Assembly (NCBI GenBank): GCA_028713795.1
Contig: JAQTNP010000001.1
Span: 1 to 28,440 of the forward strand
DNA from: Minisyncoccota bacterium
Lineage (GTDB): Bacteria > Patescibacteriota > Minisyncoccia > Minisyncoccales > PEYH01
Direction of reading: 5' to 3'
Length of the DNA: 28,440 nucleotides
Shown here: positions 7,134 through 15,916 of the stretch, one piece after another
Layout: the number at the start of each line of letters is the position of its first letter
Numbering within the stretch: position 1 is the first letter of the stretch
Program-made: the position numbers and the translations under genes
The notes under the pieces: model-generated
Told to the model about the DNA's origin: nothing
The model's database searches: none
The model's input: only the letters and a program-made list of their open reading frames with translations

Positions 7134-7622
7134 TCATTCGCCGAAGAATCGGCGAGCCCGGAACGCGAAACTGATCATCTCGCGAATCCGAGGAAACAAC
7201 TTTAATTCAGGAAGTTCCGAATCAGAGATCCAGCGGATCTCCTCAATCTCGCTTAGTGGCTTAGGATCCCCCACAGCTCTTATAAAGAAACTGAGGGCGC
7301 AATCTTGCCACTTTGCGGCGAGACGAGGAATGGCTGTATCCGCTTCCACGGATATGACATTCATCCCCGTCTCTTCAAGAACTTCCCTTCTGATCGCCAC
7401 TTCAAATGGATTGCAACCGGTCTCAGCTGCCTCCACTTGATCAGCGATCTCCAATCTTCCTCCGGGCAGTGACCAGTGGTCCTGCCCTTTGGCCCTCACC
7501 ACGAGTATGCGCCCATCTCGAAAGATGAAGGCGAATACTCCCAGGAACCACATTGGCTTCGTCTCCAATTGCTTGGAAACATCCTCCAATCTAGTCCCTG
7601 GCGCCACCCGGACTCTTTTCAT
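7134..7622 (-). CDS. NUDIX hydrolase (GC-rich), Nudix box with insertion
   Basis: ILVVR, WSLPGGRLE...RREVLEETG, EIEEIRW. Start set at ATG 7622 behind SD-like GGGGGTGG; the ORF track starts at 7655, which overlaps the predicted -10/+1 region. Confidence 0.85.
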   Translation of the reverse strand: MKRVRVAPGTRLEDVSKQLETKPMWFLGVFAFIFRDGRILVVRAKGQDHWSLPGGRLEIADQVEAAETGCNPFEVAIRREVLEETGMNVISVEADTAIPRLAAKWQDCALSFFIRAVGDPKPLSEIEEIRWISDSELPELKLFPRIREMISFAFRARRFFGE

Positions 7623-7655
7623 ATGCCACCCCCATGGCACAAGACAGCTAATCAT

Positions 7656-7696: not shown

Positions 7697-7725
7697 AAAC
7701 AAAAAATTGCTCTTTTTAAAGCAAT
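7697..7725 (-). terminator. Weak intrinsic terminator after the HTH gene
   Basis: ATTGCT-TTAAAAAG-AGCAAT followed by TTTTTGTTT on the minus strand. Confidence 0.45.
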
Positions 7726-7732
7726 CTTTTGG

Positions 7733-7978
7733 CTACTTTTTTTGACATTTTTTGATAAACCTTTCAAGCTCTTTTTCTTGTATCCTATATATCCTCCTAT
7801 TAAACTGTATTGCCTTAATCTTCCCTGCCCTAATGTATTCAAGAATTGTTTCTCTTCTTAATCTCAATCTTTCTGCAGCTTCTTGGGTAGTCAAAAGAGT
7901 CATCGCTCTAATCTTTTTAACTTCACGATTTTTTTGCTCAAATAGCGGAGTACCTTTTTTTGTTTTTATTTCTGCCAT
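7733..7978 (-). CDS. Stand-alone excisionase-like (Xis/HTH_17, MerR-type) DNA-binding protein
   Basis: LLTTQEAAERLRLRRETILEYIRAGKIKAIQFNRRIYRIQEKELERFI matches the pattern LT..EAA..L......Y..I..G.L.A......YRI....L..F. Alternative start is ATG 7903. Confidence 0.8.
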   Translation of the reverse strand: MAEIKTKKGTPLFEQKNREVKKIRAMTLLTTQEAAERLRLRRETILEYIRAGKIKAIQFNRRIYRIQEKELERFIKKCQKK

Positions 7979-7991
7979 TAAAATATATTAA

Positions 7992-8196
7992 GAGGGGGCG
8001 AGGGAGAAGGAAGATCGTTTCCGAATCAGCGACCTGATCGGTTATATCAATCCCTCTCCCTCATCGTCTCAGAGCGGCATGCACTCTGACAACGATAACG
8101 GTAGGCCGTTGATCCAAGGAAGGAGTCCTGTATGCACTAACGAGTGATTGAGGGGTGGGTTCACTGATGGATCATAGCGCTACCGTGATAGTGCTA
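7992..8196 (-). ncRNA. Candidate structured RNA (sRNA or cis leader), family not recognised; strand not certain
   Basis: About 50% GC in an AT-rich intergenic region. Abutting helices 8000-8062, 8063-8096, 8097-8110, 8111-8173 (branched) and 8175-8196. G-U pairs and an A-rich internal loop favour the minus strand, and a promoter lies directly upstream. Confidence 0.6.
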
Positions 8197-8201
8197 ATTT
8201 T

Positions 8202-8230
8202 TTTGTATCTCTTAATGCACATTTAGTCAA
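8202..8230 (-). promoter_or_regulatory. Putative sigma70 promoter for the structured RNA/HTH unit
   Basis: TTGACT (8230-8225), 17 nt, TACAAA (8207-8202). Predicted +1 near 8195 coincides with the start of the first hairpin. Confidence 0.5.
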
Positions 8231-8234
8231 GACC

Positions 8235-8257
8235 AAAAAAGCGCTTTCGCGCTTTTT
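8235..8257. terminator. Bidirectional intrinsic terminator ending the alpha/rplM-rpsI transcript
   Basis: Minus strand AAAAAGCGC-GAAA-GCGCTTTTTT just after the rpsI stop; GNRA loop, with a T-tract on each strand. Confidence 0.85.
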
Positions 8258-8263
8258 CTCTCT

Positions 8264-8794
8264 CTACCTCTTTGCCCATTGCGGGGCGCGCCTTGCTCTT
8301 TTTAATCCGAATTTCTTTCTTTCTCTCTGTCTTGGATCTCTTGTAAGAAATCCAGCCCTCTTTAATCTCTTTCTAAAATCAGCGTTAAATTTGACTAAAG
8401 TCCTTGATATCCCGTGCCTTATTGCTTCTGATTGGGAATTTAATCCTCCTCCTTTTACTATTACAGTTACCCCGAATTTATCCAAAACATTCATTTTCTC
8501 CAAAGGATCCATTATCTTTTTCTGCATCAGAGTTGAAGGAAAATATTCTGCTAATGTTTTTCCATTAACGCTCACTTTTTTATCCCCCTTGGCATATATC
8601 CTTACTCTGGCGATAGAAGTTTTTCTTCTTCCTACTGCTTCAAGATATTCTCCAGATAGTTTTGCTTCGGCAATCTTAACAACAGGTTTTTCAATCTTTT
8701 TAACGGGTTTTTTAGGAGCAACCTTTTTAACAGTTTTTTTTACAGCTGTTTTTTTAGGTTTCTCTTCTGTTTTTTTTGCTGTTTTAGTAACCAT
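8264..8794 (-). CDS. rpsI: 30S ribosomal protein S9 with Lys-rich N-terminal extension
   Basis: AVGRRKTSIARV, GGGLNSQSEAIRHGISR, LTRDPR.RERKKFGLKRARRAPQWAKR. Confidence 0.97.
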   Translation of the reverse strand: MVTKTAKKTEEKPKKTAVKKTVKKVAPKKPVKKIEKPVVKIAEAKLSGEYLEAVGRRKTSIARVRIYAKGDKKVSVNGKTLAEYFPSTLMQKKIMDPLEKMNVLDKFGVTVIVKGGGLNSQSEAIRHGISRTLVKFNADFRKRLKRAGFLTRDPRQRERKKFGLKRARRAPQWAKR

Positions 8795-15432: not shown

Positions 15433-15480
15433 AAAAGAAAAAGGCCGCAGCACACACTTCTTACAGTAGCATGCACGGCC
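15433..15480 (-). terminator. Intrinsic terminator of the orphan membrane-protein gene
   Basis: GGCCGTGCATGC...GTGTGCTGCGGCC imperfect stem (G-U pairs on minus) followed by TTTTTCTTTT. Confidence 0.75.
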
Positions 15481-15508
15481 GTCTTTTTCCGAGTTGGATC
15501 TTCGCGCT

Positions 15509-15916
15509 CTAGCGACGCTTCCGATTTGTGTTACGAGCATCGGCTATCTCTTCCTTCCGCTTGTTACGCATTCCCCGATCCCAGAAAAGCAGGAATGCGC
15601 CTCCGATCACGGCAGCTAACGGAATCAGCCATCCTTCAAGGGCGGACTGATGCTTGAAGGCCAGAGATGATGCGATGTAGGCAATGGCTCCCACGTCCAT
15701 CCAGAAAGCGATAAACCAGTATTGATACTTCTTAGCTTTTGCCCAGGCAGTCAATGGCAAGATCCACACCACCAGAATTGCCAAAGCTACCAGCTGATCG
15801 ATGTGATTATGTCGATACAGCCCGTATCCGCTGATCGCGCTAGCGCAAATATAGAAAATGAATCCGAACCAGCGCGCCCTTCTCAGGTCTGCCTTCCAAT
15901 CATAGCTCTTCTTCAC
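15509..15916 (-). CDS. Orphan 4-TM membrane protein (GC-rich), function unknown
   Basis: GTG start 6 nt after SD GAGGAGG (15923-15929), four hydrophobic segments, basic C-tail, and its own terminator. Confidence 0.75.
   Translation of the reverse strand: MKKSYDWKADLRRARWFGFIFYICASAISGYGLYRHNHIDQLVALAILVVWILPLTAWAKAKKYQYWFIAFWMDVGAIAYIASSLAFKHQSALEGWLIPLAAVIGGAFLLFWDRGMRNKRKEEIADARNTNRKRR

Follow-up and report, generated by a model that had tools for sequence, protein, structure and literature searches.

Base-pairing small RNAs that display C-rich loops are known from Gram-positive bacteria, including RoxS/RsaE (RF01820) and S. aureus RNAIII with its UCCC hairpin loops, and small-RNA genes are also found beside regulator genes, as in the pairs OxyS-OxyR, GcvB-GcvA and SgrS-SgrR. 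Members of the Candidate Phyla Radiation (CPR), or Patescibacteria, have tiny genomes for which, to our knowledge, almost no regulatory RNA has been catalogued. Surveys by the Breaker laboratory have described orphan structured noncoding RNAs, among them raiA, OLE, ROOL, GOLLD and HEARO, that come from GC-rich intergenic regions of AT-rich genomes (for example, PMC8632094). Here we analyse a GC-rich island in a 28,440-nucleotide stretch of DNA from a Minisyncoccota bacterium (contig JAQTNP010000001.1), hereafter called the window, whose positions 1-28,440 serve as coordinates throughout. An earlier note on this DNA had proposed that the island, located between the gene for ribosomal protein S9 (rpsI) and a gene for a small helix-turn-helix (HTH) protein of the HTH_17 type, encodes a multi-helix RNA. 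The predicted RNA, rpsI and the HTH_17 gene all lie on the minus strand. Based on modelled folds and on comparisons with relatives, we lean towards the view that a real, stand-alone gene for a structured RNA resides on the minus strand at 7996-8195. It represents a lineage-restricted, fast-evolving structured RNA locus of one CPR family that matches no described family.

A predicted structured RNA on the minus strand

The GC richness claimed for the island is borne out by its composition, as positions 8001-8200 are 50% GC compared with a genome mean of 36%, and the longest open reading frame (ORF) within the island spans only 31 amino acids. This GTG frame was considered as a small gene and rejected: it is not preceded by a Shine-Dalgarno (SD) sequence, strain changes alter the amino acids that it would encode, and relatives lack it. 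A BLASTN search of the element against its own genome (535 kb, 92% complete) yielded the self-match alone plus A-rich noise, indicating a single copy, and the same search against 100 relatives yielded nothing similar, again with A-rich noise only. The literature searched yielded nothing on CPR small RNAs at this locus.

Comparison of folding energies with those of dinucleotide shuffles, a check proposed in the earlier note, favours the minus strand. For 7985-8235, the minus-strand fold has an energy of -87.1 kcal/mol (z -5.54), a value equalled by 0 of 200 shuffles, whereas the plus strand of the same interval folds at -86.2 kcal/mol with a z-score of -3.12. The predicted small RNA itself (7996..8195, minus strand) would be approximately 200 nucleotides (nt) in length, with a 5' end placed from the promoter and an uncertain 3' end. 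Its fold z-scores range from -5.5 to -5.7, the latter being the value for the 200-nt core of the minus strand.

The predicted fold comprises three domains. The P1 domain (8098..8186) has, in the minimum-energy fold, a closing stem formed by 8180-8186 with 8098-8104 (ACGGUAG/CUACCGU), a second stem that pairs 8168-8174 with 8110-8116, and an apical part that varies. The second stem is the one that the earlier note had described as closing its helix D, and so this portion of helix D is retained around an interior that varies. The same note had drawn two short hairpins, C (8097-8110) and E (8175-8196), at the ends of this domain; the minimum-energy fold instead prefers the competing long-range stem 8180-8186/8098-8104, the counterpart of the stem that closes P1, and covaries, in relatives. 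A C/U-rich motif, CCCCUCAAUC (8146..8155), resides at the top of P1 and is mostly unpaired, making it a candidate seed, although three of its ten bases (8150-8152) are paired in a weak 3-bp inner stem. P2 (8063..8096) is a 14-bp hairpin, and P3 (8000..8062) is a hairpin with a GA-rich 5' strand, a CU-rich 3' strand and a small apical hairpin. These two correspond to helices B and A of the earlier note, and both fold as described there.

The proposal that the element belongs to no known RNA family holds after the Rfam search that the earlier note had called for. The window yielded no match at the gathering score with Rfam 15 covariance models, the region 7900-8300 searched at E-values up to 10 gave only chance-level hits (E 1.6-7.4, resembling small nucleolar RNA and microRNA noise), and the loci of relatives were likewise without an Rfam match. 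ARAGORN identified no transfer RNA or transfer-messenger RNA (tmRNA) in the window, and the RNase P RNA and tmRNA of this genome are located elsewhere, on contigs C26 and C34, respectively. The housekeeping RNAs 6S RNA and signal recognition particle (SRP) RNA, neither of which Rfam detects in this genome, are alike in size range, GC richness and single copy number but differ in architecture from the three separate domains predicted here. The 6S RNA candidate was rejected because the element lacks the single long hairpin, or rod, with a central bubble, and because no RF00013 match occurs in the genome. The SRP RNA candidate was rejected because there is no RF00169 or RF01854 signal at the locus and no helix-8-like motif, and because the family appears to be without this pathway. 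Neither RF00169 nor RF01854 matched any of the 26 genomes of the family (the genome studied here plus 25 others, with 20 of the 26 at least 90% complete), and PF00448, the domain of the SRP54-type GTPases Ffh and FtsY, was also found in 0 of the 26. The genome that carries the window lacks the Ffh M domain (PF02978), which scores above the cut-off in one of the 26, at a contig end in a 50%-complete bin. From these genome searches, the whole family seems to lack the SRP pathway.

Natural variation between strains was examined by using metagenome contig L052 and contigs from DNA runs X4, X8 and X6, giving three strains in total. Relative to the window, L052, X4 and X8 carry changes at 8054 in P3 and at 8075 in P2, each of which replaces a G-U pair with an A-U pair on the minus strand. 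X6 represents a third haplotype whose substitutions at 8113, 8126, 8154, 8160 and 8167, along with a 9-nt deletion at 8128, all reside within the P1 interior, and it carries zero substitutions in 7700-8112. In the window fold, the X6 changes at 8113 and 8160 turn A-U into G-U pairs. When X6 is refolded, the outer P1 stems persist, and the changes at 8160 and 8126 create G-C pairs in a GAACCC/GGACUC helix where the window has neighbouring A.C and C.A mismatches. Thus P2 and P3 are invariant over the three strains except for G-U to A-U changes, and the seven strain substitutions break no minus-strand pair (0/7).

Five of the paired positions vary, and at each of them the two alleles pair on the minus strand but not on the plus strand, a result that we estimate would occur approximately 1 in 30 times under neutral transitions and that is therefore suggestive, not decisive. 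The earlier note had argued for the minus strand from an asymmetry in G-U pairs. This signal is weak in the single sequence, with 4 G-U pairs on the minus strand versus 3 on the plus strand, and the preference for the minus strand comes from the strain variants and from the relatives. The same data bear on the possibility that the transcript is instead an antisense small RNA of the plus strand, which would start near 7996 from TTGTTT-18-TATATT and end at hairpin 8175-8196 plus T7. A consensus scan for promoters and terminators does locate a terminator-like hairpin with a T7 run at 8175..8205 on the plus strand, and the fold of this strand is good (-86.2 kcal/mol, z -3.1). However, no such terminator exists in relatives, the five variable positions noted above accommodate both alleles as pairs on the minus strand but not on the plus strand, each relative has its more stable fold on the sense strand, and one-sided changes in genus g4 (see below) fit the sense strand in 16 of 16 instances. 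We consider a plus-strand RNA highly improbable.

The rpsI-HTH_17 spacer in relatives

Relatives were identified through S9 homologues at 68-99% identity, and the corresponding locus was read from their contigs. Every examined relative whose rpsI product is at least 68% identical carries a GC-rich non-coding spacer of 285-845 nt before the same HTH_17 gene, and the order rpsI, spacer, HTH_17 is present in L099 through L106, G001 and L052. The window copy has the shortest spacer (285 nt), followed by those of L099-L102 (337 nt), G001 and L053 (358 nt), L103 (433 nt), L104 (834 nt) and L106 (845 nt). The two longest spacers (L104:2014-2847 and L106:1745-2589) each offer approximately 840 nt of ORF-free sequence at 47-48% GC with no Rfam match. 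Each may encode a single, enlarged version of this RNA or several RNAs.

As the earlier note had suggested, collecting these loci made it possible to look for compensatory changes, and the rpsI-HTH spacer was found to hold a folded RNA that exhibits them between G001 and L099. The full spacers of these two relatives align at 74% identity, while their flanking proteins are approximately 90% identical. The lengths of the insertions and deletions between them are not multiples of three, which argues that the spacer is non-coding. RNAalifold applied to G001, L099 and L100 yields 88 pairs, six of which are compensatory in that both sides have changed and the pair is kept, and the consensus fold is -94.8 kcal/mol for the sense strand versus -69 kcal/mol for the antisense strand. 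A G-C pair of P1a in G001 and L103 is an A-U pair in L099, and in P1b an A-U pair is replaced by G-C.

A common layout emerges from these relatives, consisting of a TTGACT or TTGACA promoter, an AT-rich 5' hairpin called P0, and then P1, P2 and a P3 whose 5' strand is GA-rich and whose 3' strand is CU-rich. P1 of the relatives is closed by a conserved GGUAGCGC/GCGCUAC stem and displays a C/U-rich loop of the CUCCCUCA type. The predicted apical loop of P1 reads CUCCCUCAUC in G001, CUCCCUCAAC in L103 and GCCUCUUUAA in L099 (elsewhere given as GCCUCUUU), corresponding to the motif in the window given above, and so by predicted folds an exposed C-rich motif is conserved among the homologues. L103 carries an extra hairpin and a canonical terminator.

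Several features link the window copy to this family. Its flanks are 96-100% identical to those of relatives at the protein level (96% for L099), and it shares the rpsI terminator and TTGACTAAA with them. A 13-mer, ACGGTAGCGCTAT, that forms the 5' strand of P1a is common to the window, G001 and L103, and a 12-mer, GAGGGAGAGGGA, at the base of P3 is common to the window and G001. TTGACT, the 13-mer and the 12-mer occur in the same order at the window and in relatives, and the promoter, P1, P2 and P3 follow one another identically at the window and in G001, L099 and L103. Judging by these shared features, the window copy is probably an orthologous allele that has been rearranged or replaced. Of the alleles compared at this fast-evolving locus, none is shorter or more divergent.

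The putative promoter of the window copy consists of a -35 box, TTGACT (8225..8230, minus strand), and, 17 nt after it, a weak -10-like box, TACAAA (8202..8207, minus strand), that is without T at position 6. Either TTGACT or TTGACA is present in L099-L104, in G001 and in genera g4 and g8, followed by a spacer of variable sequence, and the -10 box at the same place in relatives reads TAATTA, TAATTG or TAATAT. Six strain substitutions fall in the 17-nt promoter spacer, including those of X6 at 8217 and 8220, and none fall in the hexamers. Transcription from TTGACT-17-TACAAA would start near 8195, and the predicted RNA would end after P3 or would partly read through into the HTH gene.

Comparable elements exist in other genera of the family. 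In g4, rpsI is followed by a glycosylase gene, then by an RNA of 310-420 nt with its own TTGACA-17-TAATAT promoter and terminator, and finally by HTH_17. The g4 RNA forms 90 predicted pairs, and there are 16 one-sided changes between two species, every one of which keeps the sense-strand pair (16/16, with 0 broken). G006, of genus g6, carries a structured stretch with a terminator directly before the HTH gene. Two of the five g8 species (L026 and L033) have a promoter-RNA-terminator cassette of approximately 290 nt between the rpsI stop codon and a shared bidirectional terminator; this cassette includes a long GA/CU-rich hairpin like P3, has no HTH gene and yields no Rfam match. The RNAs of g8, g4 and g6 resemble those of g1 only in short strings such as CAAGGGC...GCCCUUG and in the way in which a promoter, a 5' hairpin, a GC-rich domain, a GA/CU hairpin and a terminator follow one another. 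The sense strand folds more stably than the antisense strand in the window, G001, g4 and g8. Of the genera searched, the pairing of RNA and HTH genes is found, by sequence, in g1, g4 and g6.

The HTH_17 gene (7733..7978, minus strand) encodes an excisionase/MerR-like protein of 81 amino acids with a Lys-rich N-terminal tail (Pfam HTH_17, E 1e-13; PDB 4J2N, Gp37, E 1.8e-4). The earlier note had placed the RNA upstream of an excisionase-like HTH gene, and this adjacency is confirmed in the window and recurs in g1, g4 and g6. Among 301 genomes of the order, full-length HTH orthologues are restricted to family f1. The gene has its own -10 box, TAATAT (7985..7990, minus strand), separated from the ATG by 6 nt (ATTTTA). 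The equivalent box is TATAAT, 6 nt before the ATG, in L103, G001 and L099 and in L030 and L034 of g4, and TATAAT, 5 nt before the ATG, in G006. L104 and L106 carry a full promoter consisting of TTGACC, 16-17 nt, TACAAT, 6 nt and ATG. Leaderless mRNAs usually have their ATG approximately 7 nt downstream of the -10 box, and from its sequence the HTH mRNA is probably leaderless.

These observations are pertinent to whether the element is a cis-acting leader of an RNA-HTH(-Nudix) transcript, in which P3, or pairing of the P1 loop with P3, tunes read-through or translation. The earlier note had named both a new small RNA and a cis-regulatory leader; its expectation of a structured non-coding minus-strand element with no Rfam match agrees with our findings, while the leader option is made less likely by the -10 box that the HTH gene possesses. 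A leader would be consistent with the lack of a terminator between P3 and the HTH start in the window, G001 and L099, with the conserved adjacency of RNA and HTH genes in g1, g4 and g6, and with complementarity between the P1 loop and 6-7 nt of the P3 5' strand in the window, G001, L103 and L099. This complementarity, however, is of low complexity (CU versus GA) and is expected by chance. Moreover, the HTH -10 box is 5-6 nt before the ATG in all relatives, and L104 and L106 also possess a complete -35 box; in L103, g4 and g6, a canonical terminator closes the RNA ahead of the HTH promoter. In genus g3, the HTH gene directly follows the rpsI terminator and has a plain TTGATC-17-TATAAT promoter with no structured RNA, and so the RNA is dispensable for HTH expression. 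Because the HTH gene has its own promoter near the ATG, a stand-alone RNA is the more likely arrangement, and we consider a leader unlikely.

The preference for a stand-alone RNA gene at the window has to be weighed against a series of contrary observations. The TTGACT-17-TACAAA promoter that the earlier note had located behind the rpsI terminator is present in the sequence, and its TTGACT is conserved, but a consensus promoter scan omits it and its -10 box is poor. The window copy also lacks P0 and has no terminator or U tract after P3; it thus has a conserved -35 box, a weak -10 box and no terminator, whereas relatives carry both promoter and terminator. Its interior cannot be aligned with those of relatives. 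A covariance model built from the window and strain L052 (R1) and searched against 60 loci found G001 at 10.8 bits and E 0.77, with helices misaligned. A second model (R2), built from P1 and P2 of G001, L099 and L100, located L103 correctly but with a score of just 12.6 bits, and it missed the window element and those of g4 and g6. An nhmmer profile of G001, L099 and L103 scored the window at E 3.3 and likewise failed to link L104, L106 and g4. As a consequence of these failed profile searches, homology of the window copy rests on synteny, the shared 13-mer, the shared 12-mer and helix order. The covariation itself rests on few independent lineages, and g3 keeps the HTH gene without the RNA.

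Some of these points would also be expected if the RNA gene is real in relatives while the window copy is a decaying or neutral remnant, degenerate and without present function. The window allele is the shortest (285 nt versus 337-845 nt), it has neither P0 nor a terminator, its interior is unalignable, profile searches fail to link it, its promoter fails the scan, and its P1 interior varies between strains and includes a 9-nt deletion. A remnant would not be expected, however, to keep 50% GC in a 36% GC genome, or to accumulate substitutions that spare or improve pairing in seven of seven cases. P2 and P3 are also invariant in three strains apart from the G-U to A-U changes, and the fold z-score of the window copy equals or exceeds those of relatives. 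We therefore regard decay as a rather improbable account of the window copy.

The earlier note had also raised the prospect of a non-autonomous palindromic mobile element, and this idea is not sustained by the genome comparisons. An element of the miniature inverted-repeat transposable element (MITE) or repetitive extragenic palindromic (REP) type, or another structured insertion element, might be suspected from an 8-bp inverted repeat, ATTAAGAG/CTCTTAAT, that flanks the element and from the comparable g8 cassette at the rpsI 3' end in two of five species. Yet an inverted repeat of 8 bp is expected by chance in 400 nt and no target-site duplication was seen, the element is single copy in a 92% complete genome with nothing similar in 100 relatives, and it occupies the same syntenic position in all clade members. 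A mobile origin is accordingly scarcely probable. Equally slight is the likelihood of a DNA-level recombination or operator site that is bound by the Xis-like HTH_17 protein and whose hairpins are incidental. The protein is excisionase-like and its gene adjoins the element, but the single integrase of this genome is encoded on contig C3 and none is encoded nearby, a search for repeated binding motifs yielded none, and the strand asymmetry of the G-U type points to selection on RNA.

Gene neighbourhood, possible targets and host context

The gene order on the minus strand is rpoA, rplQ, rplM, rpsI, the rpsI terminator, the GC-rich island, the HTH_17 gene, a Nudix gene and murA. The rpsI gene (8264..8794, minus strand; Pfam Ribosomal_S9, E 1.6e-42) is the last of the rpoA-rplQ-rplM-rpsI block, and its intrinsic terminator (8232..8258, minus strand), a GCGC-GAAA-GCGC stem followed by a U run, is identical in close relatives. 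Behind the HTH gene is a GC-rich Nudix cassette (7134..7655, minus strand) for which strain L052 has a divergent allele; L052 is identical through the HTH gene and diverges sharply from the Nudix gene start onward. In other relatives, a Cu-oxidase_4 (YfiH-like) gene replaces the Nudix gene of the window. Sequence comparison indicates that the cassette in this position is exchangeable.

We envisage that the predicted RNA would act in trans, with its C/U-rich P1 loop pairing with purine-rich (GAGGG-like) stretches near start codons, a mode of action that we liken to the trans base pairing of C-rich-loop small RNAs of Gram-positive bacteria. The neighbouring HTH_17 protein would then be a candidate regulator or partner of the RNA. 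Taken on its own, this base-pairing mechanism is possible but doubtful, and two results count against it. A scan for duplexes of the P1 loop with 471 crude start regions yielded a best value of -17.6 kcal/mol (mean -6.2, standard deviation 3.1) and no clear outlier. In addition, GGAGG-type motifs are present at only ~2-7% of crude gene starts in the host, and such rare use of SD sequences weakens a simple SD-masking model. The 3' end of the 16S rRNA (G000:C4:11281-11340) carries AGACUAAAUCAUUCUUU in place of GGAUCACCUCCUUA after helix 45, the gene ends in ...GGUCGUAGACUAAAUCAUUCUUU, and no CCUCC was found within 140 nt.

Dozens of GC-rich islands (52-67%) in this AT-rich genome take the form of small cassettes, each with a promoter, an SD sequence, an ORF and a terminator, and their AAGGAGG(UGAUC) sites are perfect. 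Examples are C4:5323-5527, C6:21080-21354, C7:5988-6176, C19:2093-2628 and C14:8926-9226, as well as 7134-7655 and 15436-15851 of the window. Perfect AAGGAGGUGAUC sites precede many of the GC-rich, foreign-looking cassette genes, and of 138 GGAGG-plus-start sites, 51 are located before ORFs of at least 48% GC, an over-representation.

The combination of a 16S rRNA without CCUCC, SD-poor native genes and perfect SD sites at cassettes prompted a more speculative proposal, in which the RNA and HTH_17 form a fast-evolving control module that silences or licenses acquired genes. The CUCCCUC-type loop and the CU-rich P3 strand would, under such control, pair selectively with the SD sites of cassettes, and the hypervariable P1 tip would track acquired genes. 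We consider such a module very unlikely.

Further ORF-free, GC-rich and strongly folding stretches occur at C6:15219-15364, C16:15186-15445 and C9:4133-4237 and are candidate small RNAs. The first of these contains UUGCCUCCGAG and carries a promoter-like TTGACA-17-TAAGAT together with a closing stem and its U run. Three copies of a GC-rich CCCTGATGGGTTACCC...GTTGGTGCACCATATCAG... sequence (C3:24069-24247, C14:1693-1849 and C14:2883-3021) represent a repeat or a gene fragment.

If its transcription is confirmed, the element described here would establish a family of small RNAs that is specific to the lineage and has a defined partner gene. The position of the locus is conserved, its sequence and size (~200-800 nt) vary widely, and it is GC-rich and folded throughout. 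On the same proviso, it would provide a natural case for structured RNAs that turn over faster than their flanks. Broader weight would attach to the failure to find Ffh or FtsY in a whole family, the 16S rRNA without CCUCC and the SD-rich GC cassettes, if these observations hold.

Comparison with known RNA systems

The element can be compared with three groups of described RNAs. Like the C-rich-loop small RNAs of Gram-positive bacteria, it is predicted to be a stand-alone gene with a sigma-70-type promoter and to present an unpaired C/U-rich sequence, CCCCUCAAUC, that would be able to pair with purine-rich ribosome-binding regions. It differs from them in that no covariance-model or sequence match connects the two, and in that the RNA of this locus is larger, multi-domain and much faster evolving. 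The window copy, moreover, is without a terminator and has no standout target, and the host has a 16S rRNA without CCUCC and rarely uses SD sequences.

With OxyS-OxyR and similar gene pairs, the locus shares the conserved adjacency of genes for a small RNA and a small DNA-binding protein, each with a separate predicted promoter. In this instance, however, the genes are in tandem and not divergent, the protein is an 81-amino-acid HTH_17/Xis-like product instead of a LysR-type regulator, no operator was found, and genus g3 keeps the HTH protein without the RNA.

The orphan structured noncoding RNAs exemplified by raiA and OLE differ in that the element matches no Rfam model, is hardly conserved in primary sequence within its genus, and so far occurs in one CPR family. 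In other respects it is like them: the genome is AT-rich, the island is rich in GC and free of ORFs, many helices and a promoter of its own are predicted, and at ~700-800 nt the longer alleles (L104 and L106) are comparable in size to these RNAs.

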